Assembly (NCBI RefSeq): GCF_044704955.1
Contig: NC_091992.1
Coordinates: 22,444,001 to 22,508,000, forward strand
Direction: 5' to 3'
Origin: Pristiophorus japonicus
Lineage: Eukaryota
Length of the DNA stretch: 64,000 nucleotides
A program made the position numbers and the translations under genes. The first letter of the stretch is position 1. Each line of letters opens with the position of its first letter. Positions 4,013 to 38,227 of this stretch are shown piece after piece. The notes below the pieces were generated by a model. It was not told the DNA's origin. It did no database searches and saw only the letters and a program-made list of their open reading frames with translations.

Positions 4013-4020
4013 GGAACACC

Positions 4021-12374: not shown

Positions 12375-13004
12375 GGGCTAGACTTTCCCCAGAGCCCTCA
12401 CAGCCCGACTGCCACCCAGAAAAGACCGCTAAGCTTCAGCAATTAACACCAGTGAAAATTTCCACTAATGAGGTAAGTAATATCAAATGGTTCTTGCACC
12501 AAGATTCTGGGTGGTTACATCTGAAACTAGTGAGAACAGGCAGTTCTTACCTGAATGGGCGGGAAGTTTTTAAAATTTAGTCTGAGGCTGTGGTTGGGCC
12601 TAGGGATGGGGGGGGGAACTTAAAAAATACTTCTTCACCAAAAAAAAGTTTAAAAAAAACATTCCCAAGATAGTTTTAAAGGTAATTGCCGTTTTACAAT
12701 TAAAAAAATAAAAATAAAAAACCTTTAACTTACCTTTCTTTGCAGAGTACTCACTCTACTGCCCTGTTTCAGGCTGCTTCTCGTGGATGGTTTCCTCAGC
12801 GATCTGGACGGGCTTCCATTGAGGCCAATCTTCCGTCCTGGCGCTTTTCTCGACGGTGCACGTGGGCGGTTTGCTCCCCGGCGGTCATTTCGAGATGTGG
12901 GCAGTTCCATTTAAAAAGGGGGAAACTTTCGCCAGGCGATTTCTCTTACAAAAACAGCTGTACCGCCAAGAAAACCGCTGAAAATAGAGCTGATAGTCTC
13001 CCCC
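12375..13004. mobile_element. Harbinger-like MITE, diverged
   Basis: gggctagacttt terminus; shares the aaaactttaacttacctt..tgcaga core with 58708-59280. Confidence 0.45.
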
Positions 13005-16000
13005 TCAGTGACCTTTATATCGCTTTTATTTCTTTGATTTCTCTCTTTATACCACCTTGTCTCCTATACATATCAATTCTGTTATTTAACCATTTCCTAT
13101 TCACACATTGGTATTTATAGGTCATTATATTTCTTTAACCTGTGAATATGGTCGTCGTGTGTTTCACCCCTTCCCTTTGTTCTGTTCCATTTTAAATGCA
13201 ATCATCTGTAATGTCTTTCAGCTTGAATTAAGATTAATACCTGGAACATCAACTGATATCTGTTCTCTCACAGAGGCTGTCTGATATGCCGAGCGTCTCC
13301 AGCATTTACTGATTTTGTTTCAGATTTTCAGCACCTGCAATATTTTGGGTTTTGTTCATTCTGTGAAACATACAAACATACAAACATAGAAAATAGGTGC
13401 AGGAGTAGTCCATTTGGCCCTTCGAGCCTGCACCACCATTCAATGAGTTAATGGCTGAACATGCAACTTCAGTATCCCATTCCTGCTTTCTCGACATATC
13501 CCTTGATCCCCCTAGTAGTAAGGACTACATCTAACTCCTTTTTGAATATATTTAGTGAATTGGCCTCAACAACTTTCTGTGGTAGAGAATTCCACAGGTT
13601 CACCACTCTCTGGGTGAAGAAGTTTCTCCTCATCTCGGTCCTAAATAGCTTACCCCTTATCCTTAGACTGTGACCCCTGGTTCTGGACTTCCCCAACATT
13701 GGGAACATTCTTCCTGCATCTAATCTGTCTAAAGCCGTCAGAATTTTAAACGTTTCTATGAGATCCCCTCTCATTCTTCTGAACTCCAGTGAATACAAGC
13801 CCAGTTGATCCAGTCTTTCTTGATATGTCAGTCTCGCCATCCCGGGAATCAGTCTGGTGAACCTTCGCTGCGCTCCCTCAATAGCAAGAATGTCCTTTCT
13901 CAGATTAGGTGACCAAAACCGTACACAATATTGAAGGTGTGGCCTCACCAGGGCCCAGTACAACTGCAGCAAGACCTCCCTGCTCCTATCGCTATGAAGG
14001 CCAACATGCCATTTGCCTTCTTCATCGCCTGCTGTACCTGCATGCCAACTTTCAATGACTGATGTACCATGACACCCAGGTCTCGTTGAACCTCCCCTTT
14101 TCCTAATCTGTCACCATTCAGATAATAGTCTGTTTTTACCACCAAAATGGATAACCTCACATTTATCCACATTATACTTCATCTGCCATGCATTTGCCCA
14201 CTCACCTAACCTAGCCAAGTCACTCTGCAGCCTCATAGCATCCTCCTCACAACTCACACTGCCACCCAATTTAGTGTCATCCGCAAATTTGGATACTACA
14301 TTTAATCCCCTCGTCTAAATCATTAATGTACAATGTAAACAGCTGGGGCCCCAGCACAGAACCTTGCGATACCCCACTAGTCACTGCCTGCCATTCTGAA
14401 AAGTACCCATTTACTCCTACTCTTTGCTTCTTGTCTGCCAACCAGTTCTCAATCCACATCAGCACACTACCCCCAATCCCATTTGCTTTAACTTTGCACA
14501 TTAATCTCTTGTGTGGGACCTTGTCGAAAGCCTTCTGAAAGTCCAAATACACCACATCAACTGGTTCCCCCTTGTCCACTCTACTGATAACATCCTCAAA
14601 AAATTCCAGAAGATTTGTCAAGCATGATTTCCCTTTCACAAATCCATGCTGACTTGGGCCTATCATGTCACCTCTTTCCAAATGCGCTGCTATGACATCC
14701 TTAATAATTGATTCCATCATTTTACCCACTACCGATGTCAGGCTGACCGGTCTATAATTCCCTGTTTTCGCTCTCCCTCCTTTTTTAAAAAGTGGGGTTA
14801 CATTGGCTACCCTCCATTCCATAGGAACTGATCCAGAGTCTATGGAATATTGGAAAGTAACTGTCAATGCATCCGCTATTTCCAAGGCCACCTCCTTAAG
14901 TACTCTGGGATGCAGACCATCAGGCCCTAGGGATTTATCGGCCTTCAATCCCATCAATTTCCCCAACACAATTTCCCGACTCATAAGGACTTCCCTCAGT
15001 TCCTACTTCTTATTAGACCCTCTGACCCCTTTTATATCCGGAAGGTTGTTTGTGTCTTCCTTAGTGAATACCGAATCAAAGTGCTTGTTCAATTGGTCTG
15101 CCATTTCTTTGTTCCCAGTTATGACTTCCTCTGATTCTGACTGCAGGGGACCTACGTTTGTCTTTACTAACCTTTTTCTCTCTACATATCTATAGAAGCT
15201 TTTGCAGTCCATTTTAATGTTCCCTGCAAGCTTCCTCTCGTACTCTATTTTCCCTGCCCTAATCAAACCCTTTGTCCTCCTCTGCTGAGTTCTAAATTTC
15301 TCCCAGTCCCCGGGTTCGCTGCTATTTCTGGCCAATTTGTATGCCACTTCCTTGGCTTTAATACTATCCCTGATTTCCCTTGATAGCCACGGTTGAGCCA
15401 CCTTCCCTTTTTTATTTTTACGCCAGACAGGGATGTACAATTGTTGTAGTTCATCCATGCGGCCTCTAAATGTCTGCCATTGCCCATCCACTGTCAACCC
15501 CTTAAGTATCATTTGCCAATCTATCCTAGCCAATTCACGCCTCATACCTTCAAAGTTACCCTTCTTTAAGTTCTGGACCATGGTCTCTGAATTAACTGTT
15601 TCATTCTCCATCCTAATCTAGAATTCCACCATATTATGGTCACTCTTCCCCAAGGGGCCTCGCACAACGAGATTGCTAATTAATCCTCTTTCATTACACA
15701 AAACCCAGTCTAAGATGGCCTCCCTCCTAGTTGGTTCCTCGACATATTGGTCTAGAAAACCATCCCTTATGCACTCCAGGAAATCCTCCTCCACCGTATT
15801 GTTTCCAGTTTGGTTAGCCCAATCTATATACATATTAAATTCACCCATGATAATTACTGCACCTTTATTGCATGCACCCCAAATTTCCTGTTTGATGCCC
15901 TCCCCAACATCACTCCTGCTGTTTGGAGGTCTGTACACAACTCCCACTGACGTCTTTTGCCCTTTGCTGTTCCGTAGCTCCACCCATACTGATTCCACAT

Positions 16001-16338
16001 CATCCAAGCTAATGTCTTTCCTTACAATTGCATTAATTTCCTCTTTAACCAGCAACGCCACCCCGCCTCCTTTTCCTTTCTGTCTATCCTTCCTAAATGT
16101 TGAATACCCTTGGATGTTGAGTTCCCAGCCTTGGTCACCCTGGAGCCATGTCTCCGTCATGCCAACCACATTGTATCCGTTAACTGCTATCTGCACAGTT
16201 AATTCGTTCACCTTATTCCGAATACTCCTCGCATTGAGGCACAGAGCCTTCAGGCTTGCCTTTTTAACACACTTTGATCCTTTAGAATTTTGCTGTAAAG
16301 TGGCCCTTTTTGTTTTTTGCCTCGGGTTTCTCTGCCCT

Positions 16339-17812
16339 TGTAAGGGTCAAAAATCCAGTGTTCAAAAAAAAAGACACCCGGTAACAAGGAAACAGAGCAT
16401 GGGACCATTCCATACACCCTTTTAATCGAACTTTGGCCAAGGCAAGCCACAGGAAGAAAGGCAGGCTGGGAAATATGTCTGTGGCCAGACACTATGTGAA
16501 TTCGAGGGCCACAGGCAGGCTGAGAAGCCAGCCAATCCCGGGAAAGTGCATCCTGCGCCGGCCAAGCAGTGAATCGAGCCGGGCCAGAAGCAGGGAAATC
16601 GTCAACCAATGGGGAATACCTGGCCCATTTTGTAAAGAACAGCTTACCTGGATCTAATCAAGGAGATGGGCCTATTACCAGCCCATTACCCATGTACATA
16701 AAGACAATAGGAAAGCCTCACATCTCAGTACATCCCGACCCTGACACAATAGCCAGCCAGATGATTAGGCACCGAGGTGCATAAGAGACAATGCTTTACA
16801 TTTAACACCTCATCCCCGCCTCGACTCAAACAATGAGACATTGATTCAGTTTGGGCACAAAAGGGGCCGGAACTGAACCAGATATAAAGGCAAGAGCAAG
16901 AAGGACACACACAGGTGGAGGAGACGCACAAAAGAAGGACACACACTCGGAAGGAGACACACTCAGACAGAGACAGAGAACTGACGACATCTCAAAGGAA
17001 GAGAGAGGGACTCAGCCTCGCAGCAGATAAAACCTCCAAGGACGACTGGAGAAGCCTGATTTAAGGTGGGACCGACTATACCTGTCAAAAGGGAAACTGT
17101 GAGTATCACCCTGGAGTCTTTTCCCAACTGTCAGCTTAGGCTAGTTAGGTGTAAAGGAGGGGGTGGGTGATAGAGTGGGTGTAAGGATTTTAAACTTGTA
17201 TAAACCTTTCGATGTGCCCGTTCCTCCCAGACCTTTTCTTAGTTCAAGGTGGTTCAACAAGCCAGTGCGTCGACCTTGTATTTCACTTGGTCCACACTTT
17301 GGGGGCTCGTACCAAATATACATGTGTGTATTTGCCTTTGTGTTGTTTTAGCAATGTGACCTTGTTTAAACGCTGGGTTTTAATAAAGTAGGACTTACCT
17401 TAATTTTTCAGGAACATTTCTTGTCTTTTGCATCTCTGAGTGTTTTATTGTGGGAAGCTCACTATCAAACCTAAATTCTGAGGTCAGAACCAGATAGGGG
17501 CACAGGACGCCTCAAAAATGTCATGGTTGCGATTGGATATAAGCGGCCGCAGACATATTGGTGGTATTAAACATATCACTAAGCTGTAATTGGATATAAG
17601 CAGCCGCAGACATATTGGTGGTATCAAATATATCACTAAGCTGTAATTGGGTATAAGCAGCCTCAGTCATATTGGTGGTATCAAACATATCACTAAGCTG
17701 TAATTGGTATAAGCAGGAAAAAGAAAAGATCCACTGGTGATAGCAACTCAAATCACCATAGTCTGAAGGTTGCGCCCGGTCACCAGCAACCGTAGAAGGA
17801 TAAATCCCTACA
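16339..17812 (+). mobile_element. Solo LTR (1474 bp), ERV-like or Gypsy-like
   Basis: TGTAAGGG...CCCTACA termini; 4-bp TSD CCCT (16335-16338 / 17813-17816); TATA-like GATATAAAGG at 16881; AATAAA near 17382; interrupts the CR1 ORF2 N-terminus. Confidence 0.85.
17532..17716. repeat. 57-bp tandem repeat, about 3.3 copies, inside the solo LTR
   Basis: Units start at 17532, 17589, 17646, 17703 (attggatataagc...cactaagctgta). Confidence 0.9.
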
Positions 17813-19211
17813 CCCTCCATTTTTACTCTTCTCCTTTCTGTCTTTTGCTTCTGTCTCCATTTTGTTTCCCTCTGTCGCCCTGCATTGGTTCCCATCCCCC
17901 TGCCATATTAGTTTAACTCCTCCCCAACAGCACTAGCAAACACTCCCCCTAGAACATTGGTTCCAGTCCTGCCCAGGTGCAAACCGTCCGTTTTGTACTG
18001 GTCCCACCTCCCCCAGAACCGGTTCCAATGCCCCAGGAATTTGAATCCCTCCCTGCTGCACCACTGCTCAAGCCACGTATTCATCTGAGCTATCCTGCGA
18101 TTCCTACTCTGACTATCACGTGGCACTGGTAACAATCCTGAGATTACTACTTTTGAAATCCTACTTTTTAATTTACCTCCTAGCTCCCTAAATTCGTCTC
18201 GTAGGACCTCATCCCATTTTTTACCTATGTCGTTGGTACCTATATGCACCACGTTCACCTTCCCTTTTCAGAATGTCCTGCACCCGCTCCAAGACATCCT
18301 TGACCCTTGCAGCAGGGAGGCAACATACCATCCTGGAGTCTTGGTTGCGGCCGCAGAAACGCCTATCTATTCCCCTTACAATCGAATCCCCTATCACTAT
18401 TGCTCTCCCACTCTTTTTCCTGCCCTCCTGTGCAGCAGAACCCGCCACGGTGCCATGAACCTGGCTGCTGCTGCTCTCCCCTGATGAGTCATCCCTCTCA
18501 ACAGTACCCAAAGCGGTGTATCTGTTTTGCAGGGGGATGACCGCAGGGTTCCCCTGCACTACCTTCCTTGCACTGTTCTTCCTGTTGGTCTTCCATTCCC
18601 TATCTGGCTGTGTACCCTTTACCTGCGGTAAGATCAACTCACTAAATGTGCTATTCACGTCATTCTCAGCATCGTGGATGCGCCAGAGTGGATCCACCCG
18701 CAGCTCCAGTTCCGCAACGCGGTTCGTCAGGAGCTGGAGGCGGATACACTTCCCGCACACGTAGTCGTCAGGGACACCGAAGGCAGCCCGGATTTCCCAC
18801 ATGGTACAGGAGGAGCATAACACGTGTCCGAGCTCTCCTGCCATGACTTAACCCCTAGATTAACTTAATTTGGCAACCACAATGCTAAAGGTTACTTACT
18901 GAAATAGAAAAGAAAAAGAAAAGGAAAAGCTACTTACCAATCACCAGCCAATCACTTACCCCTTTGACTGTGACATCACCTTTCGATTTCTTTCTAATTT
19001 TTTGCCTTCTGTTCCTACTGCAGCTGCTCAAGCACGCCTTTTGTAGGCCTCACCAACCCTGCCACAGGAACTCCCACCTCTCGCTGACTCCCCGAGCTCC
19101 TGGTCGCACTGGCCTTTTGTAGGTCTCACCAACGCTGCCGCCGGAACTCCGGCCTCTCGCCTGTCACAACATCCAAATTCTGACTGGGAAACCTAGCAGT
19201 TTGAAGTTGTT

Positions 19212-20374: not shown

Positions 20375-20789
20375 GTTAAAATGGCTGAAGTCCCTGGTAG
20401 TGGAATCTCAAACTCTAATCTGGAGATTTTAGAGTTGACTTGATCTGCCCCAAAGCTCCTCAATACTACATACTGTTTCTTTACCCCAGCTAATCTTTGA
20501 TATAATCCAATTTGATACCTGCTGATTTCAACGCCGCGAAAATGTTAGTGCGCACACAGAACTATTTAATGCAAACTGTGTAAATATTTAAGAATTACTT
20601 GCATCAAATTAAGTAATTTTTAATAACCAAAATCAATTTGTCATATTTCAGCTATTTGAAGTGATACTCATTTTTGTTTTAAAAATGCATCTCACTCTGA
20701 AGGTTAAATAGCATTTCCTCTAATTAAACGGCGTAGCAATGAGCCTCACTTTTTGTCATCATAAACCTCACTCTTAATATTGGACCTTC

Positions 20790-21034
20790 TTATCATTCCC
20801 AGCGACATGTCCGGAACGTGGTAAAAGATTCATTTATTTTTTTAAAAAACTGATAGAAACAAGTCGCTCCGTGTGCAAGTCTCGGGCTTTGCGGGTAACA
20901 TTTTGCACGCATTTTGCCTGTAGTCGTTTGCTGTTCCTCAGGGAGGTGCTGTACGGCCGAAGGTTTCGTTTTAATCGTGTGCTCACTTCCTACTTCGTCA
21001 GAGAGGGCGACCGCTTGCAGATTGGGAGCTAGCA
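20790..21034. promoter_or_regulatory. CpG-rich promoter region of the methyltransferase-like gene, possibly bidirectional
   Basis: Local CpG enrichment in non-repeat sequence directly 5' of the ATG; ETS-like CACTTCC motif near 20984; no TATA seen. Confidence 0.45.
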
Positions 21035-21334
21035 ATGGAGTCAGATGGTAGCGGTGAAATACAATGGCAAACAGTCCAACAGAGAAAATGCGGGGGTGAA
21101 AACCTGTATTACAAGATGTACTGCGTGAAGATGGAGCAGTTTCCAGCCGACATTCACAGATTTTGCGACCCTGAGTTACAACACGAGCGAAGAAGAGAGC
21201 TGCTTCAGCTATTGAGGGATGTCGAGGAATTGAGTTGCCAAAAGCTGCAAATATTATTTTCTTTTTCTATTCCAAATCTAGAAGCAATTAGCTTTATTGC
21301 AGATTTAAAGCAACCTGTGGTTTCAGCTGGTGCT
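21035..21334 (+). CDS. Methyltransferase-like gene, coding exon 1
   Basis: ATG 21035, 100 codons MESDGSG...PVVSAGA, donor GTAAGT at 21335. Confidence 0.8.
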
Positions 21335-24300
21335 GTAAGTAATATTTAAATTGCAACATGATCGTGTTGTTGCTCCTGCTCAGCGCTGAACGCCCCCTCC
21401 CTGTCACTTGCCTCATGTACAATATCTCGATCATTGGCTGACCTGCCATGGCTACAGATTGAAATAGAAATAAATGCATCAACTCAAAGCAGGCTCAGGT
21501 TAAGCCATTGCAACCAAGCAAGGTGCATTTCAAGAGCACCACAGGAAAAGTTGCACTAAAATTGACAGGCAAAAGTCACAATCCTCGATGTAAATTCTGA
21601 GAACTTTGAAAATGCCATTACATTTTTGTAGTTTTAGAATAAATTGAGCATATTCCCATTGGCCTAGATCATCAATGTTTTGCAGCTCCACCACCACCAT
21701 CCCTTGCTGCTACTGACCATGATATAATGGTCTCTGCCTCAATTACTCTACGTGATAAAACATTTCCTGCTTCAACACTCCTCTGTGCAAAGAAACTCCT
21801 CCAACCATCTCACTCTCTGAAATGATCATTTTAATTTGATGACTTCTTTTCACTGACTGCCAACTGGAGGAACTAGTTTGTTTTTCCATATTGAACTATC
21901 AAAGTTCTTAATTTTAAAAACCTGAAATAAATCTCATGGCCTTTTCTCACCAGCATTGTAGGCATTTTGAGAAGGTAGCATCTCAAGTTAGGAAGAAAGC
22001 CATTTGACACAGTGTAGCTAGACTTCCATAATGATGAAGTACCAAATGAGAGACTCTTACAAAGCAAGATAAAAGACGATGCATGGATTTGATTAGTACT
22101 GAATGGGCTGCCTAGAGGGCTATTGCTGTCATCCCTCCTATTCACGGTGTACATAAATGATCTGGATTTGCAGTCCTAATACAAGATGACTCGGTGTTGG
22201 GGGTGGACTCCCCAGGAAGCATCCAGTAGAATTTGTACCTTGGGTATTCAGTGGTTAATGAAATTCAATATGGACACAAAAGTGCTGCATATTGGAATTA
22301 AAAGTAGGAGCCACATGTACTCCGTGTGTGGAATAAAACTTGCCAAGGGGGAAGTTGAGAGACCTAGGTAGTTGCTAATGATGCCTGAGGGGTGTGAGGC
22401 AGCAACAAAAACAAGTAACTAGGATGCTGGGTTATATTTCAAAATCCGTTGAGTTCAGAGTGCCAAAAGTTATGCTGAAGTTGTACAGTGCCCTGAGTTC
22501 AGGTTATATCTGGATTACTGCAAAACACTTGTGATCACTGTGAAATCGGGTCCATCCAGCCCCCGGGGCCAATGCCAAGGTGAGCTAAGAAGCTGATCCA
22601 TGGTGTTAAGGAGAAGAATTATGGAGGACGACTTGATAAGCTTGAGCTGTTCAGGCTCGAAAAGAGAGATCTCAGAAGGAATTTTATAGGCATATAAGGT
22701 ATATAGATTGAGAGTAAATCCAGACAGTACTTTCAGGGCAGTACACCAAATTTAGAGGGCACAGATTCAGGATTGTAAAAGGCAAGTTTAAGACAGGCGT
22801 CAGGAAGTATGTCTTTATAGAAGCTGGTCAATTGTTGGAACAAATTGTCAGGAAGGATGGTTGAGGTGGGGATGCTAGTTAATTTAAGGAATGCCATACA
22901 CTTTAAAGATTAATATTCTGGAAGGATGAGACAAATGACTGAAGGATTGAACATTATTTGTGATTTTGACACACCATGTTTAATCTCACTTATGAATTTT
23001 TTTATGCAGGGAACAGGATACTGGGAGTATCTGCTTCAGAGCCATGGAGTAGATCTGATATCATTTGATACAAATACTGTTTATCCGTCTGAGATGCGAT
23101 ATTCAGAGATTTTGGTATGTGTTAACACTTTTGCAGAGTGACTAGAGTCATGAGTGAGGGTGGTGGTTTTATCTGTCACTCTGTTTATGTATGAGAGATG
23201 TTTAGATCTATAAAATAACAGATGATTAGGGGTGACTTGCAGACATTTATGCATTTCTTTTTCTGGTTCACATTGATTGCCTTAAATTTTCAAACTACTG
23301 CCTAAGACAACTGTACCTTTGTTTTATCTTTATTTTAGTTGAAAAGAAAAAGCCTAATTTGCCAATAACTCAGATTTTCAAAAAGAAATCTAAGCCCTAA
23401 ACGGACCTGCTTTAACGTAAATTGTAGACTTCATTTCTGCACATAACAATGTCAATCCGCATTTATGTAACGCCTTTAATGGAGTATATCCTCCTGAGGT
23501 GCTTCACAGAGGCCGAGCAGCGGTGGATGAGTTAGGGGAGGTGAACAAAGGCTTTGCCAAAAAGGCACGTTTAAAGGTAGGGAGGAAGTTAGCAAAGCAG
23601 AGGGCTTAAGGGAGAGAGTTCTAGAGTTTGGAGCTAAGACAGCTGAAGATTCTGCTACTGAAGGTAGAGAAAGAGGGCTCGAGTCAAAAGAGCAGATGGC
23701 ACATAGGGTCGGAGGACATTGCAGAGTTAGGGAGGTGTAAATCAGGGAAAGGGATGTGTAAATGAGATGAGGATTTTCAAATAATTACATGAGCGGGAAG
23801 CCATTAGAGACTGGTGAGTTTCGGACTGGTAAATGTCAAGCTGGGCTGGGGTCAGTCTAATGAGGACTAATTTTGCAGGTTCCATTTCGACTTGCTCTTT
23901 TTCTTTGTATAATCAACAACCCCGTTTCTCTTTTTTCCTTTTAATTTTCTAATTTGTGTCAGTAGTGTTTATCTCTCCAACCTGGCCTCTCTTCTGTTCC
24001 ACCTCCTGGCTGTATACTTATAGTCATCCAGTTCAATGTTTATGTGTCTCCTGGTAGTACACCTCTCGGCTTCCAAGTCTGCCTTTCCCTACTACTTTAG
24101 GACCAGATCTGCACATTAACCCAGAACTTTGTAGGGTTCAATAATAAATTATTTTGAATGTTTGGTTTTTACTAACATGATCACATTATGATAAACTTGT
24201 CATTTACAGTTTGCTAAGACTGGTTATAAAAGGCCCAAGTAAGTTGTACTCACACAAGCATTCACTGAACGTTGCATACACTAAAAACATAGGAACAGAA

Positions 24301-27150
24301 GTAATCCATTCAGCTTCTCGAATCCTTTGTGCTATTCAGTCAGCTCACGGCTCAAGTCCATTTTACCTGCCTTTGATCCATATCCCTTGATACCCTTACC
24401 TAATAAAAATCTATCAATTTCAGTCTTGAAAATTTTAATTGACCCAGCAGCCAGTTTTTTTGCAGGAGCGAGTTCACAATTTCCACTACCTTTTGTATAA
24501 AAATTAAAATGTTTTATTTCATTCCAGAATGTCCGGCTTGAATTTTAATATCATGCCTGCTTTTTCTGGATTCCACCATTAGAAGAAATAGTTTCTCTGT
24601 ATCGACCCTATTAAATCCCTTTATTATTTTAAACACCTCAATTAGATCACCCCTCAACCTTCGAAACTCAAGCCAATTTCATGCAACCTGTCCTCATAAT
24701 TTAACCCCTTTGAATCCCGGTATAATTCTGGTTAATCTGCACCGTACCCCCTCTAAGACCAATATACCTTCCCTGATGTGTGGTGCCCACACCTGAATGC
24801 AGTACTCCAGGTGGGGTCTGACCAAGGCTCCGTACAACGGAAGCATTACTTCCTCCCCTTTGTAATCCAGTCTCCTTGAAATAAAGGCCAACAATCCATT
24901 AACCTTTTTCATAATGGTACAGAAGATGTGTTGGGAAGCAATGAATTTTTCCCACACTTTGTAATAGTAAATATAGTAAAATAATAAAACTACTCATCAG
25001 TGAAAGGCCAGTAATGAAATCCCAACACCCCCAAAAATGGATTAAGTGAGTGTTCTTAGAGCAAACGCACTGTCTTGAGCTAGGGAATCAACGCTGGGTC
25101 TTGCAGTGTTCCAGCAAGCTGGCACATTATGGCTGATTTCTAGTTGTTATCTGATTGTAACCTGGACCTCTGTCATACATCTCCTTGTAACTTAATCTAA
25201 AGCTTAATTGGGGGAAGTAGGATTCCTGTCTAACCTGATCGTAGAAGTGTAGTATAAAATTATATATACAGTATTAAAAAAAAGTTTATTATTTATGTCT
25301 TCTATTGTCTAGGCCCAAGCTTTGGAATTCCTTCCCTAAACCTTTCCGTCTCTCTACCTCTCTTTACTCCTTTAAGACGATCCTTAAAACCTGCCTCTTT
25401 GACCACGCTTTTGGTCATCTGCCCTAATTTTTCCTTATGTGGCCCGGTGTCAAATTCTTTTACCTTGTAATATTCCTGTGTAGCACCTTGCGACGTTTTA
25501 CTACGTTAAAGGCACTATATAAATACAAGTTGTTGTTGTTGTATTCAATGATTCTAAATCCACTGGTCTGGTCCCACTGAATTTTCCCAAAAACTATTCT
25601 GCAGCTAGTGTCTGCACACATTTTTATGTACAGCATTATTCAAGTCACGTCCCATTTTCCAACGAGAATACAGTTGTCATTGAATTGGTGTTGATTTCTA
25701 AGACAGAGAGAAATGTACGGCTTGCAGTCACTTTGGAGCTGGAGGTCTAATAGATAACCAGCAGGAGAAAACGAACATTGTAACAAGCCTGGGAGTTGTC
25801 TTTCACACAAGCCAGAAGTGATGAGAGGTAAATATTATTTTCCAAAAAGGGACAATTCAAAATGTGATTCATTGCCTTTGCAATGCCCTGAGGACATGAA
25901 AGGCGCTATATAAATGTAGCCTCACGTTGTTAACTAATTACCTTTAAAGTTTCAATTCAATAAAATGGCTAATGCAGAATATGTAAATTATAGATGATCT
26001 TAATGGGAAAAGAGAATATTGAACATAAATAAACTTTGAATCCATATGAACTTTTGTAAATATGAATTAAATATTAAGTGTAGTTGAAGTGTGCAAATAC
26101 TGAACTGTATCACCAAATTTGACACACATTATTCAATTTATAGATGTTTAAAATTGTTGTCAGGTGACGAAAGCTCTCTGTTATTACTTAACATAATAAG
26201 CTGAGGGAAAAAAGCATTTAATATTAAAGATGATTGTTTTTGTAACTTTAGACCAGTGGTCCTGAAATCCTGGAACAGTTTCCTGACAGAGTGCTTTTTC
26301 TGGCCTGGCCAGACACAGACGGTAAGAAAGGAAGGGTTTCACACTCCTATTCGAGGGAGAATATTCTTTGGCTCAAAGTAATTATTATTCCTTCCCAATG
26401 GCATTCTGAGAAAAATGCCTTAACCTTAAGTATAATAGTCCAAAAGGTTCAAGTGTGGTTTGGCTGGGACATTCTTAGAATTCATAGCAATTAACTGATT
26501 GAAGCTTAGTTGAAACTCGAAGAATCAGAAGTAGCAAGGTGAAACTGTTTTGTACAATGCATTTACAAATTAAGAATTTTAGCAGTAAGATTTTGTTTTT
26601 TGTTGCACAATTTCTTCCTTGATTTCAAGTGCACAACACGATTATCTGAATAGCAAGGGTTGTAATTTATTTAATACATTGAATTGCAATTGTTACTTTT
26701 AATTTTAGCTAATATTAAAATAATGACAAGTGTGTGCAATTTGGTCAGAAAAGCATTTACCAGGAGGAAATAGCTAAAGTGGTTAACAGTCATGAGGTCA
26801 TTTGTAAGTATTGGAAATGGTGCTGCATTTGATAACGTTGTTTTTCTTCTGCAGAGTCTTCGACATTTTCTCTTGATTGTTTGAGCTATTTCAAAGGGAA
26901 CACCATCCTTCATGTTGGGGAGTTACTGGGTGAAACGCTGTCAGCTAATCACTGGGGACAGTCATCGTCTCGTGATTTCCAGCTGGCACTTGCAGAAGAT
27001 TTCTGCTGTCTGAGCAGAATTAAACTTCCAAACTGGCCAGGGCACTTAGATTCCTTCACCATGTGGGAAAGAAAGAGCACTCAACCAGTTGTGTGTGACG
27101 GAGCACATTTTCATTATGTGAACACTAAGTGCCGAGTGTACTTATCATGA
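21035..27150 (+). CDS. Uncharacterised class I (seven-beta-strand) SAM-dependent methyltransferase-like protein, 4 coding exons, 256 aa
   Basis: Exons 21035-21334, 23010-23114, 26252-26321, 26855-27150 all have GT-AG boundaries with matching phases (0,0,1); 771 nt = 256 aa + TGA. Motif I VVSAGA|GTGYW spans the exon 1/2 junction, followed by GVDLISFD, VLFLAWP, ILHVGE and LPNWP..DSFTMWER. CpG-rich region just upstream. Confidence 0.85.
21940..22930 (+). mobile_element. Highly degenerate CR1-like RT fragment in intron 1 of the methyltransferase-like gene
   Basis: WLMKFN..KVLHIG remnant and other RT C-terminal traces. Confidence 0.55.
23010..23114 (+). CDS. Methyltransferase-like gene, coding exon 2
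   Basis: ttttatgcag acceptor; GTGYWEYLLQSHGVDLISFDTNTVYPSEMRYSEIL; donor GTATGT. Confidence 0.85.
24285..24915 (-). mobile_element. CR1 3' fragment
   Basis: ALVRPHLEYC motif and CR1 3' UTR. Confidence 0.75.
26252..26321 (+). CDS. Methyltransferase-like gene, coding exon 3
   Basis: actttag acceptor; TSGPEILEQFPDRVLFLAWPDTD+G; donor GTAAGA. Confidence 0.85.
26855..27150 (+). CDS. Methyltransferase-like gene, coding exon 4
   Basis: tttttcttctgcag acceptor; (E)SSTFSLDCLSYFKGNTILHVGE...CRVYLS*, in phase with exon 3. Confidence 0.85.
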
Positions 27151-27747
27151 GTAATTTCGATAAATTAGACCATGTCATTCTCTATCTGGGAAATGCTGTC
27201 TATCATTTATTTTATTTAATAGGCCGACAAAATAGTAACACTCAAGCTGCCACTTTGAATCAATTTGAAGCAGCAGGATTTATACTTTTGTTGGACTCTT
27301 ACTGAAAAGCAATACATAAATCGAATGCAAACAGACTATGTTTTGGAAAACTAAGATGTTGGAGATGCTGGGAACATAATCCACTGGTGGTTAATGTGCT
27401 TTAAGCCTCATGACCAATTGCCTTTCTATGGTTTATTTCCCAGAACCCAACAACCTGTTCTGCTTGTCTACTGTATTTTATAATCTAGTAGAAAACAAGT
27501 CTGATGAGTCTCTTCAGTCAAGCATTTTAGAAACTATAGAACAAGTGATTGCTCGTGTGCCATTTGAGACAAGGAGAAGGGAAACATTTGATGACTTTTA
27601 TTTGAATATTTTAATAACCCAAGTTATTGCGATGAGATGTTAAATCAATCACAGTACACAGGTTGTTGTTCTATAACAGAACCAAGTGTACTATAGCTTT
27701 CCTCTGCAGCCTCTCTCTGATGCTCTGTTGACGTGTTGGAAAACGGT

Positions 27748-27895
27748 TTACTGCTGGATGCGGCGGAGTGACTGAACCTGGAAGGTCTGGGCATGGGATC
27801 CCCACTCTCTCCAGTGCTTGTATTCTCCAGCATGACGATCACATTCCATGATGTACTGGAAGCCACGATATCCTGGGTACTGGTAGCACACCCAT
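27748..27895 (-). CDS. cryba1l: Beta-crystallin A1-like exon 6 (Greek key 4)
   Basis: [48 protein letters not shown]; minus-strand AATAAA at 27597-27602. Confidence 0.95.
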
Positions 27896-30800
27896 CTGGG
27901 GCAGGAAAAGAGCATACTTTGCATAAATGAACTTTGAATCCATGTTAAGTTTCATAAGTATGATTTAAATATTAATGAAATTGAATATATTAAATAAAAA
28001 GATAATATAAATTTTATTGTTCTGATTCAGCATTTATCTACCAATGAAGCAATGGTACTAAAATCAACCCTTTCAAACCTCCAGGCCCACAACATTCAAA
28101 TGGAAGAAACCAGGGCATATTACTGCAAACAGACAACAATAACTTGTATTTATATAGCACCTTTAATGTAGTAAAACATCCCAAGGCGCTTCACAGGACT
28201 ATTATGAAACAACAAAAATTGACACCGAGCCACATAAGGAGCAATTAGGGCAGATGACCAAAAGCTTGGTCAAAGAGGTAGATTTTAAGGAGCGTCTTAA
28301 AGGAGGAAAAAGTGGAGGAGAGGCTTAGGCAAGGAATTCTGGAGCTTAGGGCCTAGCCAACAGAAGGCATGGCCACCAATAGTTGAGCAATTATAATCAG
28401 GGATGCTCAAGAAGGCAGAATTAGAGGAGCGCAGATATCTTGGGGGGGTTTTGGGGCTGGAGGAGATTACAGAGATAGGGAGGAGCGAGGCCATGGAGGG
28501 ATTTGAAAACAAGATGATAATTTTGAAATCAAAGTGTTGCTTAACTGCGAGCCAATGTAGGTCAGCAAGCACAGGGATGATAGGCGAATAGAACTTGGTG
28601 CAAATTAGGACACGGGCAGCCGAGTTTTGGATGACCTCAAGCTTACGTAGGGTAGAACATGGGAGGCCAACCAGGAGTGCATTGGAATAGTCAAGTCTAG
28701 ACCAAGCGCCAAGGTTTCTAGGGCTGAATTGGCAGGGTCAGAGACTGCAGAAGGCCCTCAGGCACAGCTTGGACACCCCTGCTTTGTTTATTTTTGAACT
28801 AGTTAGAATTGATCAACTAGAATATTTTCTTGAGGCCCAAGGTAAACTATAATTTTAGAAACAGAAAACCTGATATGATCATCATGCCCCTAAATGTACA
28901 AGACTTCACTGAATCCAGCTAAGTTTTCTTCCTTAAACTGCAATAACCCAACTTGACTTTTTTAAAACATGAAAGCACGACTTACGCGCCAGCTTGAATC
29001 TTCATGGATCCAACTTCATTGTTGCACCAGCCCATGGCTTGCAAAGAGGGATAGTCATCACACATCTCCCACTGTCTACCAATGAAGTTTTCCTTCTCGA
29101 AAATGACAATTTTGGATTCTTTATGGTGCTAAAGGAAAATGATAGTCATACATTGAGTACATTTGTAGATGCTGCAATACATTTGCAAATGGACTAAACA
29201 AAGTCAACTTTGAAATAGTAATCACAGTATACCTTTACCATTTAATATTTTGCATATGTCACAAATTTTACCATTCCTTTAACTCGCCTTTTAGAGACTA
29301 AAACTTAACCTTTCCTCGTAGCACACCACTTTACACAGGAGATTAATCTTGCTGCTCCTGTGCTCTTTTAAATTCAGTTACATTGCGGCATAATGACTCC
29401 ATCTAAATACACCATCACAAGCATGGCACGACAAGTGCATTGTAAAGCTTTAACATAACTGCCGCAGACTTCTGGTCTAGATGTACTTTTGAGCACAGTT
29501 AATTTTTCAATTGTGTTGCAACACTAACACCAGATATTGATAATGACATTACTCTACCATTACTGCCAAATCCCTTTCCATGTCTCTGTTCTAATACAGT
29601 TTCTAAAAACTGGTATAAAGACAAAGTCCCAAAAAGGTTAACCATGTAAACTTCTGTTTAATGAGTCACATTATCTTATTTGGTAATATATGTTGCACTG
29701 TCAGTTATGTGGAGTATATGTTATGCTAGCATCAAGCCCTACAGATAATGAATAGTAAACCAACTTACAGCAGAGCAAATGGGGCGGAAGGACATGAGTC
29801 TCTCAGTGTGGTAAGCATTGCTGCCACTCCAGGCGTCCCAGCAGGGGTACTCTCCTTTCTCCAGGATAAATTGTTGCCCAAAGAAGCTGGAATGTTCATA
29901 ACCAGCCCACCTACAAGAAGAAAATTGTTTGTGTCAACTTTTCAAAAATATATATATTTATGTTCTTCCCCCTATTTAAAAATTGAGAAACTCAAATAAC
30001 TCTTAATGTATTATCTATTGGCAATCATTTGCTGATTCATTCATGAGAACTTACACCTGCACAATGATGCAGTAAATATAAGTACTGGCCTGAGGGAGCT
30101 GTGCAGCAATTGCTTCCCCAATGGGGATCTTGAGGGTGCAGTACACCTATTGAGTTAATCTCTCCGGCAATAGTTAAAGTGAGGTTCCATCCTTTAAACT
30201 ACCTAGAACTGATTGAATTCCCCTTGATAAGCAAGATCTGAGATTGTTCTCAGGATAATTCCTTTAAAAGACTCGAGTATGGGATCTGAGTGTGCCCGAG
30301 TCCTTTAGTGTATCGGCCAGTGCTTCCTGCCATCCAGAGTATGCGTCACCTGCTCCTGTCTCAGTCCGAAACCATTACCCAACTGAATCCTACAGCTGTA
30401 ACCACCGAGGCCTGCCCACTGTTGTGACAATAAATTATACCGCACAAATACAATACGCCCAGATTTCCGAGATCTTCGACTTCCCTCCATCTGAACCAAA
30501 CTCCACCCATAAAGCCGGCTGCCTCTGACTCCCAAATACAAGTATCCTCCAATTGCGCTTGTTCGGGAGTGGGGAATCTATCAACGTTGCGACCACATTT
30601 TCAAATGCAGCAAGAAAGTAAGTAATTTTTCTGGTCTTTTAATTGCAATTTTTTTGAACGTTTTAAAACAAAATTATCTTCAATGAGGCCTGCTCCGTAT
30701 TTTCTGTTTCTTTTAAAGCATTTTTGTGGAAAAAGTATAAATCACAGTAAAACAGGAAAAGCTTACCCAATTGCAGATTCCTAGACGTGCTGAGTTTGAT

Positions 30801-31959
30801 GTGCATGAATGATGGTTCAATTAATTGAAATATATTAGCATGGGTTTCGCACTTCCTTGAGTCTCGATTTTTACGATATTTTATGCCCATTTATGGCCAC
30901 TTTAAGTTTGGACGTATTCTAATGGGACTGGGAGGATACTTGGGCATATCTTGACATTGGCAAAATAGGCACAACACCAGGCATATTTTTGGGTCAATCT
31001 TCCGGTTTGCACCCAAGGAGCAAACTCTAGGCCATACTGTCCTGAGATCAAAGCAAGTATTGTGCAGTGTGGGTTGACAGACAGACCTGTCAATCAGCTC
31101 TTTTACATTTTTTGCAATAGGAAAGCCTTTTTAAGGCCCCACCACATGCACATGCCATGGACATTGATGTGACGTGCACACGTTCGCAAACTAGTCTGGA
31201 AATCTGATTTGCTTCATAGAGAAGGCAAAGAATGCTGAGGGGAAGCAAGTTGTTTTCGGGGATTCCTGACGTCCAAGCTCAGTCTGGCTGGAGTTATACT
31301 GTCGCCCGACCACTGGAATTTGGGTGTGAAATCCCCAACTCAAGGGGCTTTCCCTCCCCCAGCTTTAGTGTGTCACTGTCGTGTGAAAACTGCTTTGCAT
31401 CAAAACAAAAAGTATCAGTGCAACTGCACCCTGAAATACATCGATACTGAGTTTAGGTCATAAACGCATGAAGCTGATCTAATTCCCTCCTTCGTTATCA
31501 GTGCCTAAATTAGCCAAACTTGTTGAGAGCAAATAAAAAAATACATTTCTGTGAATTGATTTCTTTGATTTGCAAATGATAGTTGATATTATTTAAATCC
31601 ATGATTGGTTAAGCTTGATAAGGTTTGCTTTGTAATTTGTTTCACAGTAACGGTTCGGGCTGAGTTTTTTTTGCTGTAAATATATGTAAAGGCTGTTGAC
31701 TCACGCTCCGCAATCGACTTTGATGGATCGAATATTGTCAAAACCACAATCCATGATATTCTTGCAGGATGCAGTAAATTCCATCCTCTTGCCCTGGAAG
31801 TTTTCTTGATCATAAACAGTAATCTGCAATAAAAAAACAATATTTACTCGTTTCATGATAAAAAGGACAGTACACAAAAGCAAAAGTTTCAATTCTGATT
31901 AAATATTGTCAAAAAATAAACAGTACCTTGAAAAGCGATGCGGGGTTTGTCTGCGCCAT
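27748..31959 (-). CDS. cryba1l: Beta-crystallin A1-like (acidic beta-crystallin), 5 coding exons, 194 aa
   Basis: Exons 31927-31959, 31705-31823, 29769-29910, 28986-29128, 27748-27895; 585 nt; one Greek key per exon; [56 protein letters not shown]. Family certain; CRYBA1 versus the cryba1-like paralog is inferred from sequence and linkage. Confidence 0.95.
28131..28700 (-). mobile_element. L2 3' fragment
   Basis: LADLHWL..DFKI motif; same tail family at 25308-25541 and 33625-33880. Confidence 0.75.
28986..29128 (-). CDS. cryba1l: Beta-crystallin A1-like exon 5 (Greek key 3)
   Basis: [47 protein letters not shown]; tttag / GTAAGT. Confidence 0.95.
29769..29910 (-). CDS. cryba1l: Beta-crystallin A1-like exon 4 (Greek key 2)
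   Basis: [47 protein letters not shown]; ttgtag / GTAAGT. Confidence 0.95.
31705..31823 (-). CDS. cryba1l: Beta-crystallin A1-like exon 3 (Greek key 1)
   Basis: [39 protein letters not shown]; ttgcag / GTGAGT. Confidence 0.95.
31927..31959 (-). CDS. cryba1l: Beta-crystallin A1-like, coding part of exon 2
   Basis: [11 protein letters not shown]; exon begins at 31983 after tttttag; donor GTACTG. Confidence 0.85.
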
Positions 31960-33125: not shown

Positions 33126-34974
33126 GGCTTGGATTTTGCAGTAAAAATAATACTGAGGCTATCAGCATTCACCATTACTAAGTATAAATCGGACCGCAAT
33201 TTCCGGCGACCGCACATGTGCTGTTAAAGGTGGAAATCAGGAAGTTGCTGTTCGAGTTGCCCTGCTCTTCCAGAAGCTTCCATATCTCGCCAAGAGATTC
33301 AGCATTGAAACACATGAAGAGCATGAAGTTGCAGTATATACGTGATAGATACCCACTAAACTCGTCAGAAAAAGTTGGGGCCTGTCCATTCCAGTTTAAG
33401 TAATTTTTTAAACAGTGTGATTAATTACTGTCAAATAACCGTTCTGACATTGAAAATTAACTTTTACAAGTGTGGAGTCGCATTCTTTCAGCTTTTAATG
33501 GAGATTTACAAAATGTTAATAAAACCTTTTTTTTAAACTTTTTTTCTTTCTGTCTCTTTTATCTCTCGCTTAATACTATCTTTCTTTCCTTTTATTTTGC
33601 TTTCTGTACACAATTTGGCATTGAATTGGTGGCCATGCCTTCTGTTGCCTAGGCCCCAAGCTCTGGAACTCCCTCCCTAAACCTCTCTGCCTTGCTCTCT
33701 CTCTCTTTCCTCCTTCAAGATCCTCCTTAAAACCTACCACTTTGACCAAGCTTGGGTCACCTGTCCTAATTTCTCCTTATGTGGCTCGGTGTCAAATTTT
33801 TTGTCTCATAATACTCCTGCGAAGCGCCTTGGGACGTTTCACTACATTAAAGGCGCTATATAAATACAAGTTGTGTTGTTGAATTAAATATTCTAACTTG
33901 CACTTCCTGGTTCAGACTCAGCTTGCCTCAGTGAGAATTCTTCAATCTGATTGGTTAAGGAAATACACAATTGCTTACCCTGTATTACATTTTGGTAAGA
34001 AAAATAGGAAGGTCACATATTACTTGGAAAATAAGAATCTAAATGGGGTAGAGGAGCAAAGGAATCTAGGAGTACAAATACACAAATCACTAAAAAATAT
34101 CGACACAGGTTAACAAGACCATAAAAAAAAGCAAACCAAGCACTAGGTTTACTTCCAGGAGGAATAAAATTGAAAAGTTGTGAAGTTATGCTAAACTTGT
34201 ATCGAACCTTGGTTAGACCACATTTGGAGTACTGTGTGCAATTCTGGATCCATATTATAAAAAGGATATAGAGGCACTGGAGAGTGTGCAGAGAACGTTT
34301 ACAAGGATGATACCAGAAATGCGAGGGTATACCTATCGGGAAAGGATGAACAGGCTGGGTCTCACTTCTCTTGAAAAGAGAAGGCTGAGCGGTGACCTAA
34401 TAGAGGTCTTTAAAATTATAAAAGCGATTGATAGAGTAGATACAGGGAGAGTGTTTCCACCTGGGGCGGGGGGGGGGGGGGGAAGAGAGCATAACTAGAG
34501 GCCATCAATATACGATAATCACCAAGAAATCAAATTTGGAATTTAGAAGAAATTTCTTTGCCCAGAGTGTGTTGAGAATATGGAACTTGCTACCACAGGG
34601 AGAGGATAGAGGAAGCGAATAGTATGGATGCATTTAAGGGGCAATTCGATAACTTTATGAGAGAGAAGGGAATAGAGTGTTATGCTGATATAGTTAGATG
34701 AGGAAAGATGAGAAGAGGCTCAAGTGGAGCATAAGCACCAACCGGCATGGACTGGTTGGGCTGAATGGCCTGTTTCTGTGCTGTATATCCTATACAATCC
34801 TCTGTAATCCTATATTCACACAGATCCCAGATGCCCAGTAGAGGGCACTACGCTGTTTTGGCTTACTAATCACCGTAAGTTTCAGTGCAAAAGCCTATAG
34901 AAAGTCTGTGGGCAAGCGTAAATGTAATTAATGGTTTGCGTTGCTCGTTCGCCGCTGACTGCGAAATTTGGGCC
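33126..34974. mobile_element. Non-autonomous DNA transposon (PIF/Harbinger-like) with nested L2 and CR1 fragments
   Basis: TIRs ggcttggattttgcagt / actgcgaaatttgggcc; 3-bp TSD AAT; internally related to 19212-20374. Confidence 0.7.
33975..34815 (+). mobile_element. CR1 3' fragment nested in a MITE
   Basis: SLEKRRLSGDLIEVFKI; 3' UTR similar to 4145-4255. Confidence 0.75.
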
Positions 34975-35149
34975 AATGTTGCATATACAAAGTGAAAATT
35001 CAAACTCATTCAAGAACTCAAATGGGTATTTATCAGCAGAAACAAGCCGGTTTTAAATCTATGAATTAAGATGACAAAATACATTTACCCTGTTGTTTCT
35101 GGCTTCACTGATTGCAATTTTATGTTGCTGTGCTCGTGTGGATGTCGAT

Positions 35150-35493
35150 TGAAAGAAAAACTGCATTTATATAATGCCTTTCATGACCACTGGACAGCCC
35201 AAAGCGCTTTACAGCCAATGAAGTATTTTTTTTTTAAAGTATAATCACTGTTGTAATGTAGGAAATGCAGTAGCCAATTTGCGCTTAGCAAACTCCCACA
35301 AACAGCAAATTGATAATGACCACATAATCTGTTTTCTGTTATGTTGATTGAGGGATAAATATTGGCCAGGACACCGTGGATATCCTCCATGCTCTTCTAA
35401 GAAATAGTGCCATGGGATCTTTTACATCCACCTGAGAGAGCAGATGGGGCCTCGGTTTAATGTCTCATCCGAAAGACGACACCTCCGACAGTA
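35150..35493 (-). mobile_element. SINE of the same family, 5'-truncated
   Basis: Body and tail match 45987-46387. Confidence 0.75.
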
Positions 35494-38227
35494 ATAATTT
35501 ATCTTGTACTATTGCTTGGATCACTAGATCCATGGGACAACACTAATTGAACATTAGTTTTGTCATGTATTCAACTGTCATTGTAATCCATGTATAAACT
35601 GACCTAAGTTGTACACCGTGAGAACACTGACCACTAGGTGGTGAACTTGTGAGAGACACTCCTAACCTGGACTTTCAGGTATAAAAGGGGAAGCTCCACC
35701 CACCTTCATCACTTCAGTGCTGGAATAAAGGTTATTGGTCACAAAGTGACATTCTCTCAAGTATGGGCCGCGTGTGCATTTGTACTGTATAGTCAGGATA
35801 TATCATTGGACAAGCAGCACAGACGAGAGGTACTGTGTTGGTGATGATTGGGACGATTTTATTGAGAGACTACAGCAAAGTTTCGTCAGTAAGGAATGGC
35901 TGGGATAGGATTCGGCCGACAAACGCAGGACTCATCTCCTGACGGTTTGTGGATCCAGGACGTACTCCCTGATGAAGGACCTTCTAGCGCCAGAGAAGCC
36001 GGCGGACAAGACTTTTGAAGAGCTCAGTAAGTTGATCGGGGAACACTTTAAACCGGCAAGCAACATACACATGGCGAGACATTGGTTTTACACGCACCAG
36101 CGGCGAGAAGGGCAATGTGTTCCAGACTTCGTGGCAGACCTCCGGCGACTGGCGAGCCGATGGAAGTTCCCAGATGCATGCAGAGTGGAGATGCTGCAAG
36201 ACTTTTTTTATTGAGGGTATCGGGCACGCTGGGGTTTTCAGGAAACTGATTGGGACCAAAGACTTGACCCTGGAAATGGTGGCTTTGATGGCCCAGACAT
36301 TCATCTCAGGAGAGGAAGAGACCAGAATGATGTTTGACAAAAATCTTGGTTTAAATGCAGCAAATGGACAGGGAGTCAACATTGTTAATGCAGCACACAG
36401 TTCTCCAGGCAGACAAGGGCAATCGGATATGTCCGAGCATGTAGTCGAATCCAAAAAGGGAATTAAACAGAGACAATGGCTAGCTGAACGGCGATTCATG
36501 CCATTGCAAGGGTCAATGCGGCCATCAACACCTGTCAATGGTGCGTTTAAGGACAGTTACAGAGAGAGTCAGAGACGATCGACTGGTAATGGACCTTTTG
36601 TTTTCAACAACGGCTCAAGTTGGAGGTGTGGAGGCAAACACACAGCCAGAGCTTGCAGGTATCAGCAATATACCTGCAGAAATTGCAACATCAGCGGTCA
36701 CTTGGCTAGTACGTGCAGGAAGCCTGCAGCAAGATTGATGTACGAGGAGGACGGGCCCGATGTAAGCCCTACGAGGCCAAATGGACACTGGGGAAAATCG
36801 CTGGAAGCTGAAGTTCAGCAAGTTCATGTGGAGCACATATACAGTTCATCCACCAGGACGCCACCGATAATGATGAAAGTGCTCCTCAATGGCATCCCAG
36901 TATCAATGGAGCTAGATACGGGAGCCAGCCAGTCTCTGATGAGTATCAAACAGTTCGACAAGTTGTGGGTGTCCAAGGCCAGGAGGCTAAAATTATTGCC
37001 GATTGATGCACAGCTACAGACATATACAAAGGAGATCATTCCGGTGCTAGGCAGCGCCACGGAGAACAGGTTGCCACTCTGGATTGTCCCGGGGAATGGT
37101 CCCGCACTGCTGGGGAGGAGTTGGTTTGCTGTCATGAACTGGAATGGGGCGATGTCAATGCAATTTCTTCTGTGGAGCGAATATCATGCTCACAGGTCCT
37201 GGACAAATTTGACTCACTATTTCAACCCGGCATTGGCACTTTCATGGGGACCAAGGTAGTGATTCACATAAACCCGGACGCCAGGCCAGTACACCACAAG
37301 GCCAGAGAGGTGCCATTCGTGATGCGGGAAAAGATAGAACGCGAATTGGACCACCTGCTGAGGGAAGGCATCATTTTGCCAGTCGAAATCAGTGACTTGG
37401 CGAGCCCAATTGTGCCGGTGCTCAAAGCGGATGGGCATGTCCATGTGGTGATTACAAGGCCACCATCAATCGGGTGTCACTCCAAGACCAGTACCCGCTA
37501 CCGAGAGCGGAGGACCTCTTTGCGACGCCATCTGGTGGCAAACCTTTTTCAAAATTGGACCTGACCTCAGCTTACATGACCCAGGAGCTGGCGAGTGAGT
37601 CGAAGAAGCTGACCACCATCACGACATACAAGGGGTTGTTTGAGTACAACAGATGTCCGTTCGGGATTCGCTCGGCCGCCGCAATCTTTCAACGAAACAT
37701 GGAAAGTCTCCTCAAGTCGATTCCAAGGACGGTGGTTTTTCAAGACAACATCCTCATCACGGGTTACGATACTGAAGAACACATCCACAACCTGGAGGAG
37801 GTGCTACGCAGACTGGACCGGGTAGGTCTGCGAGTGAAAAAGGCGAAGTGCGTCTTCCTAGCTCCAGAGATAAAATTCCTGGGGATGAGGGGATCAGACC
37901 TACTGTGTCCAAAATGGAAGCGATCCAGAGAGCACCCAGACCCCGTAACACGACGGAGCTGCATTCATTCCTGGGGCTCTTGAACTATTTTGGTAACTTT
38001 CTTCCCAAATTGAGCACGCTGTTAGAGCCGCTACACGTGTTCCTACGCAAAGGTTGCGAATGGGTCTGGGGGGACAGCCAGGAAAGGGCTTTTGATAGAG
38101 CACGCAATTTGTTATGCTCCAACAATCTGTTAACACTACATGACCCATGTAAGAAACTTGTTTTAACGTGCGATGCGTCATCTTATGGGGTCGGGTGTGT
38201 GTTGCAGCATGTTAATGCCAAGGGTCA

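Follow-up and report, generated by a model that had tools for sequence, protein, structure and literature searches.

The window analysed here is a 64,000-nucleotide (nt) stretch of the sawshark Pristiophorus japonicus (contig NC_091992.1, positions 22,444,001 to 22,508,000), and it contains an intact, spliced four-exon gene on the plus strand at 21035-27150. The product is a conserved, unnamed protein, predicted to be a class I S-adenosylmethionine (SAM)-dependent methyltransferase; its substrate motif is atypical, and its apparent losses among animals form a striking pattern. We tentatively propose that this gene, of likely pre-animal ancestry, encodes a protein amine methyltransferase, an assignment that we favor with less than even confidence. 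The gene model is already in the databases and the family is undescribed in the literature found; our searches returned no paper on the gene or the family, and paper supplements could list phage members.

Conceptual translation gives 256 residues with no internal stops from the following exons.

Exon 1, 21035-21334, plus strand: 300 nt, phase 0, residues 1-100; N-terminal helices, the F-S-F-S-I-P motif, strand 1 and the first half of motif I (SAGA).
Exon 2, 23010-23114, plus strand: 105 nt, phase 0 and symmetric (0-0), residues 101-135; GTGYW and the post-I Asp 120, within ISFD.
Exon 3, 26252-26321, plus strand: 70 nt, phase 1, residues 136-158; strand 4, LFLAWP and the Post II motif W154-P155-D156.
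Exon 4, 26855-27150, plus strand: 296 nt including the stop, residues 159-256; strand 5 with H178-V-G180-E181, W192-G193, and strands 6 and 7 with L-P-x-W-P, D224, W229 and R231.

The introns measure 1675, 3137 and 533 nt, and all three have GT..AG borders. A sequence-only reading of the window had described a clean four-exon gene of this length, and its coordinates proved exact. As it had noted, intron 1 splits the glycine-rich motif (SAGA/GTGYW) at the border of exons 1 and 2, and the segments ISFD, LFLAWP, HVGE and LPNWP follow in that order, in exons 2, 3, 4 and 4. Logan contigs from run X1, the kind of which is not on record, cross the joints 21334>23010, 23113>26251 and 26320>26854, each with GT..AG, at depths of 31, 26 and 73; each joint has 29-30 letters on its shorter side, which is borderline for the 31-letter bridging rule. 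The product is identical, letter for letter, to P0001, a UniRef ‘uncharacterized protein’ of P. japonicus, so the sawshark gene is already annotated, though unnamed. A chance open frame is excluded because orthologs across jawed vertebrates are 59-87% identical to the sawshark protein.

Other splice forms were also observed. In X1, an extra exon within intron 2 (25513-25827) is spliced to exon 3 (25827>26252) at a depth of 12.6; as a coding cassette it was rejected, an early stop appearing with every acceptor tried. Skipping of exon 2, which removes residues 101-135, is annotated in seven other species, namely three sharks or rays, three amphibians and one coral (models P0002, P0004, P0007, P0015, P0018, P0026 and P0050). 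These forms, from which the SAM-binding motifs are gone, would represent either a conserved inactive isoform or the easy skipping of a symmetric exon.

The predicted fold is that of a class I SAM-dependent methyltransferase. An AlphaFold2 model of P0001, built on a 147-sequence alignment, has a predicted local distance difference test score (pLDDT) of 94.9 and a predicted template modeling score of 0.92. It displays the seven-strand Rossmann-like fold with terminal β-hairpin that defines the class I, or seven-β-strand (7BS), enzymes, preceded by N-terminal helices, with strands placed at 95-98, 116-120, 149-153, 175-180, 208-215 and 225-231. Structural searches agree with the model, so the fold proposed from motif order in the sequence-only reading is borne out. 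The wide search (VIA) returned 170 chains at Z ≥ 8, and the 50 listed all have the SAM-methyltransferase fold (Z 9.1-10.8). The top ranks are tied: COMT (Z 10.8-11.5), Trm14 (10.7), PH1948 (10.6), Mtq2 (10.3) and METTL21C (10.1). Foldseek against the Protein Data Bank returned generic methyltransferases only, at template modeling scores of ~0.4, and sequence searches against solved structures yielded no significant match (best E 0.041 and 0.015); no close solved relative was found, identities reaching only ~16%. Among METTL21-type lysine methyltransferases, the METTL21D-type chain 7oas matched in sequence at E = 1, and structural Z values were 9.8-10.1, tied with others. A model of the prokaryote-type relative P0101 (pLDDT 81) has the same spread of methyltransferase matches and points to no single substrate class.

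Conservation was assessed in 35 animal and choanoflagellate proteins and in 129 more distant relatives. The motif I glycine loop, G99-A-G101-T-G103, follows strand 1 as in other class I enzymes, and an acid, Asp 120, ends strand 2. Gly 99, Gly 101, Tyr 104, Trp 105 and Asp 120 are present in 35/35 of the first set and Gly 103 in 33/35, while in the distant set Gly 99, Gly 101 and Asp 120 reach 96%, 99% and 98%. Beyond the SAM site, Trp 154, Pro 155, Asp 156, His 178, Gly 180, Glu 181, Trp 219 and Asp 224 are likewise invariant in 35/35, which argues for a constrained pocket.

The Post II motif after strand 4 sets the family apart. METTL21-type lysine methyltransferases carry DxxY at this position, whereas [DN]PP[YF] is the Post II pattern of amino-methyltransferases, a group that takes in N6A/N4C DNA enzymes, METTL5, HemK and Trm14, with NPPY in Mtq2/HemK2. 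Here the animal proteins read W-P-D (W154-P-D-T, where DxxY would stand), and prokaryotic and viral members read W-P-P-[YLPH], with WPPY in 30, WPPL in 25, WPPP in 15 and WPPH in 8 of 136 loci (13 unparsed). Neither form has the polar residue followed by PP[YF] of the [DNS]PP[YF] pattern, and we know of no family pattern that agrees with W-P-[D/P]. In COMT, Mg is bound by an Asp after strand 4 and an Asp-Asn after strand 5; the corresponding positions, assigned by motif rather than by superposition, are Ala or Cys 153 and Gly 180-Glu 181. According to PMC11514484, the Post II motif tends to follow substrate type in 7BS enzymes, and DPPY occurs in DNA and protein enzymes alike.

The family extends well beyond animals. 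At E ≤ 0.001 it comprises 3,997 clusters, with members in haloviruses, jumbo phages, giant viruses, bacteria, Plasmodiophora and oomycete-rich clusters, so the relatives in microbial eukaryotes and bacteria named in the sequence-only reading were found and viruses are added to them. We collected 59 viral and at least 78 bacterial or archaeal loci, using alignment A3 for the scan because the wider alignment A2 was too diverse. Giant-virus proteins match by fold at E down to 3e-13, with several paralogous matches (ranks 1-24). Two fish iridovirus proteins also match by fold (E ~2-3e-7), above the generic methyltransferase level. Pfam has no model for the family (Methyltransf_23 is sub-threshold for P0001, E 0.06, and none of the four exons matches singly), and NCBIfam gives no match for P0001 and only weak ones across 147 members (best E 2e-4).

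The nearest profile is PHROG 19090, of unknown function, which aligns with P0001 at E 5.4e-13 (residues 70-200 on profile positions 37-168 of 191). This profile is also resembled by phiCh1 ORF83, phiH1_425 and HGTV-1 gene 67 (‘AdoMet-MTase’) and, more distantly, by Goslar gp111 and phage Miami gp121; to our knowledge no member of the group has been characterised. P0001 is 28-30% identical to the halovirus genes over ~63% of its length and shares the GxGxGYW, LxLCWP, GE and PxW motifs with the group. Proteins of the animal clade carry additional helices at the N terminus and an insertion (LLGET..PWGQ) behind strand 5; they read WPD where the group reads WPP, and a Ser stands in place of the motif I Glu. 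In PMC7824862, which discusses DNA and RNA methylases of jumbo phages, no passage in the part available to us could be matched to the family; its supplements could list phage members.

How, then, might the enzyme act? Our preferred, tentative reading is a small, acidic, single-domain protein that would methylate an amine, whether of a lysine, a histidine or the N-terminus, within a basic protein stretch. SAM would be held by G99-x-G101-x-G103 and Asp 120. The substrate nitrogen would enter a pocket lined by W154-P155-D156 after strand 4, Glu 181 after strand 5 and the aromatics Phe 77, Tyr 104, Trp 105, Trp 192 and Trp 219, the aromatics stacking on methylammonium while the acids bind the positive charge of the substrate. 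A protein amine is favored because the proteins are net negative (35/35 animal and choanoflagellate members, median −10), because the pocket residues are acidic and aromatic, and because the fusion partners are mostly protein-directed. In 60 long unnamed relatives, fusions were found with SET (three, two with the Rubisco-LSMT substrate domain), ankyrin (three), PrmA-like second methyltransferase (two) and JmjC (one) domains. TPR repeats occur in 12 of 30 long bacterial open reading frames (ORFs) scanned (L065-L067, L070, L071, L077, L080, L085, L086, L089, L090 and L107), and two of the 12 also have a DUF6782 peptidase; the TPR fusions are mostly from Obscuribacterales/Melainabacteria, and some lie in tandem. 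By eye, the N terminus is signal- or lipoprotein-like in about 8 of 15 bacterial TPR-type ORFs, and judged from such sequences the TPR-methyltransferase fusions look like exported proteins. A protein substrate is further favored by the presence of protein methyltransferases among the top structural ranks. METTL21A/C/D, Mtq2/HemK2, FAM86A (EEF2KMT) and PrmA score Z 9.1-10.3, several less than one Z below the top. The METTL21, FAM86A and Mtq2 enzymes align over 141-171 residues and are of similar small size, although they are only 8-16% identical and their DxxY and NPPY motifs are absent here. With the METTL-type class I enzymes in general, the protein has the fold, the glycine-rich motif I and the post-I Asp in common, but those that have been solved are at most ~16% identical and Post II here is W-P-[D/P].

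Several observations weigh against this assignment. The fold itself picks no substrate: COMT comes first (Z 11.5, root-mean-square deviation 3.2, 167 residues aligned), and RNA methyltransferases tie structurally with protein ones. Where 75% of distant relatives have a Glu as the motif I acid, 34/35 animal and choanoflagellate proteins have Ser 97, and the Post II motif fits neither DxxY nor [DN]PP[YF]. The pocket was derived from motif positions rather than from model coordinates. The fusions were found in unnamed gene models of other lineages and may be mis-joins, gene contexts seen outside animals may not apply to the animal proteins, and GIY-YIG and Dus fusions, together with ABC-transporter and amidohydrolase neighbors, point to other substrates. 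As for ancestry, the losses are drawn from annotated proteins rather than genome scans, and the descent from a quick tree rather than a careful search.

Those neighbors bear on an alternative that we consider unlikely but deserving of attention, a COMT-like small-molecule O- or N-methyltransferase, in which acids following strands 4 and 5 might hold a metal. COMT entries take the top ten ranks of a second structural search (Z 11.1-11.5, 165-174 residues aligned, N-terminal helices included) and rank 1 of the wide one (Z 10.8). The protein is small, acidic and single-domain, its patchy loss would suit a metabolic or detoxifying enzyme, and the upstream neighbors scanned for actinobacterial members include eight ABC-transporter genes and four amidohydrolases. 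However, the COMT score is only 0.9 Z above that of the RNA methyltransferase PH1948, which counts as a tie with unrelated methyltransferases; identity is 10-14%, and by motif position Ala/Cys and Gly-Glu stand where COMT has its metal-binding acids. The actinobacterial loci are related and so not independent, and phage carriage and TPR fusions fit a small-molecule substrate poorly.

Somewhat less probable is an enzyme that methylates base nitrogens of RNA or DNA, in which W-P-P-[Y/L] would be a variant form of [DNS]-P-P-[YF]. The WPPY-type motifs of prokaryotic and viral members would suit it, as would Trm14, PH1948 and Ta1320 in the tied top structural ranks, but a Trp stands where a polar residue would contact the amino group, and in the animal enzymes the motif is WPD and the net charge is always negative, which would not be expected of a nucleic-acid binder acting alone. 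Genomic context is similarly divided. An N-terminal GIY-YIG nuclease is fused in 5/59 viral and 1/78 bacterial loci (L006, L011, L012, L024, L026 and L125; large phage contigs and one spirochaete contig), and one long relative has a Dus fusion. A DNA methyltransferase lies within five loci (L006, L011, L024, L026 and L064), four of them GIY-YIG phage loci, and directly upstream of the gene in phiCh1. HGTV-1 gene 67 sits inside a tRNA array, and in L037 and L042 a tRNA begins at the methyltransferase stop codon. Nevertheless, a tRNA lies within ~5 kb in only 9/59 viral loci. Of the 59 viral records, 49 were searched (those set aside include three near-duplicates, three short contigs and three partial matches); 27/49 had no tRNA match, and N6_N4 methylases occurred in 11/49, usually at a distance from the gene. 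These counts do not support a general linkage to tRNAs or DNA methylases, and no single conserved neighbor gene emerged across the 137 prokaryotic and viral loci, where the clusters that recurred most often proved to be chained or shadow ORFs. Most of the GIY-YIG phage fusions belong to a single clade; PMC1564403 describes fusions of such nucleases to NPPY and TrmH methyltransferases and warns that they may reflect mobility.

It is improbable that the animal protein binds SAM without catalysis, as a sensor or scaffold like SAMTOR. The Ser that replaces the motif I acid in the animal-choanoflagellate clade would be in keeping with this, SAMTOR shows that a 7BS protein can be without activity (PMC11514484), and the signal- or lipoprotein-like N termini of bacterial TPR-type proteins would put the domain away from cytoplasmic SAM. 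Yet phage and shark proteins alike keep the residues that follow strands 4 and 5 unchanged, as catalysis would predict, and stand-alone carriage by many viruses suits an enzyme.

The distribution in animals fits vertical inheritance of the putative methyltransferase from a likely pre-animal ancestor, followed by losses. A profile search of annotated proteins gave 490 hits, and among the best 120 all 34 named vertebrate proteins are from cartilaginous fish, coelacanth, lungfish or amphibians, the last from all three orders. None of the 34 is from ray-finned fish, amniotes or jawless fish, and other protein searches add none; separate losses in ray-finned fish and amniotes would explain this pattern. 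Nor was an ortholog found in mammals or under a named vertebrate METTL gene among named annotated proteins, in line with the absence of a mammalian METTL counterpart suspected earlier. Named invertebrate carriers are Branchiostoma, Saccoglossus, Ptychodera, cnidarians and Trichoplax, and five named genera of choanoflagellates have the gene. No protostome is named among the listed matches; one distant Atlas cluster has Arthropoda as its commonest group (18 records). One model, P0024, has 754 residues with an INI1 DNA-binding domain and two methyltransferase copies, likely a mis-joined duplication.

In a quick IQ-TREE phylogeny (95 rows, midpoint root), a long branch separates the animal and choanoflagellate proteins from all 25 prokaryotic and viral loci included, with a Shimodaira-Hasegawa-like approximate likelihood-ratio test (SH-aLRT) value of 99. 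Supported subgroups follow the species tree (SH-aLRT 99 for vertebrates, 95 for cartilaginous fish, 100 for frogs, 99 for stony corals and 99 for octocorals). A Stylophora coral isoform lacks exactly residues 101-135 and a Branchiostoma amphioxus isoform departs at the end of exon 3; because these breakpoints coincide with shark exon ends, all three introns would predate vertebrates. Thus, of the earlier suggestion of an ancient enzyme kept in cartilaginous fish and lost elsewhere, antiquity and loss stand, whereas retention in cartilaginous fish only does not, since lungfish, amphibians, invertebrates and choanoflagellates carry it. The competing idea of a transfer into fish or vertebrates that was later intronised draws on the patchy distribution and on the nearest non-choanozoan relatives (protists, bacteria and viruses) being only ~30-36% identical, but, like restriction to cartilaginous fish, it is very improbable given the orthologs in lobe-finned fish, amphibians, invertebrate deuterostomes, cnidarians, placozoa and choanoflagellates, the single clade with subgroups in species order and the introns apparently common to coral and amphioxus, and by these sequence comparisons a transfer at the vertebrate level is refuted. 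A far earlier transfer, into the common stem of animals and choanoflagellates, is possible.

The following features flank the gene.

Promoter and 5' region, 20750-21034, no strand assigned: CpG-enriched.
3' region, 27151-27895, plus strand: covered by a single X1 contig that links exon 4 with the final exon of the converging cryba-like gene.
Convergent beta-A crystallin-like gene, 27751-31826, minus strand: the interval is that of the exons placed by tblastn.
crybb1l3/beta-B crystallin-like gene, 52348-61125, plus strand: downstream partner in the read-through models of other cartilaginous fishes.

The observed/expected CpG ratio is 1.33 at 20800-20999 versus 0.45 for the whole window. The match of a 1771-nt X1 contig stops at 20750, exactly at a minus-strand GT donor, which implies that this CpG-rich promoter also gives rise to a spliced transcript in the opposite direction. 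At the other end, the 3' ends of the methyltransferase and cryba-like genes abut or overlap, one X1 contig spanning both. Poly(A) signals between them are on the minus strand only; the plus strand has no AATAAA in 27151-30000, which makes weak termination plausible, and a single ATTAAA at 27989.

Read-through models in seven cartilaginous-fish genera (P0047, P0052, P0071, P0252-P0258, P0260 and P0261) bridge the antisense cryba gene to reach crybb1l3. Exon 3 is joined to the first coding exon of the crystallin in Carcharodon, Cetorhinus, Rhincodon, Scyliorhinus torazame, Amblyraja and Callorhinchus, and in Narcine the join starts inside exon 4. Since these models pair the two genes in seven genera, the gene order is kept across cartilaginous fish. 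The equivalent sawshark join (26252-26321 with 52349-52430) is in frame; this joint is not among the five X1 contigs on 26000-27760, though contigs cannot show absence. Such a read-through product would lack strands 5-7 and could hardly act as an enzyme. Of 42 upstream frames listed, 30 were scanned, and none held a TMIGD1-like Ig exon. Dense remnants of long interspersed nuclear element-type reverse transcriptase and long terminal repeat-type retroelements, some nested, occupy 2692-18847 and 33900-50400, and a 997-residue frame (40364-43357, minus strand) lies among them between the two crystallin genes.

On a broader and more doubtful view, the gene would represent, in animals, an undescribed family whose active-site chemistry is its own and centers on W-P-[D/P]. 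The enzyme would serve phages, giant viruses and bacterial proteins that bear TPR repeats and look exported in the modification of host proteins, while choanoflagellates, corals, sharks and amphibians would write a protein methyl mark lost separately in ray-finned fish and amniotes; in cartilaginous fish, the promoter would also drive a conserved read-through fusion of half a methyltransferase with a beta-crystallin. More immediately, annotation can be corrected in several sharks and rays, where the gene is hidden as ‘beta-crystallin isoform X1.’ In humans, the catalogue of seven-strand methyltransferases is nearly full, with 100 of 120 characterised (PMC11514484), and a family that mammals and teleosts have apparently lost escapes such cataloguing. 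The gene is open to study in Xenopus tropicalis (LOC100495598) and Nematostella. One known activity would name ~4,000 sequence clusters from phages, giant viruses, bacteria and protists, and may reveal a new methyl mark together with a new substrate motif.

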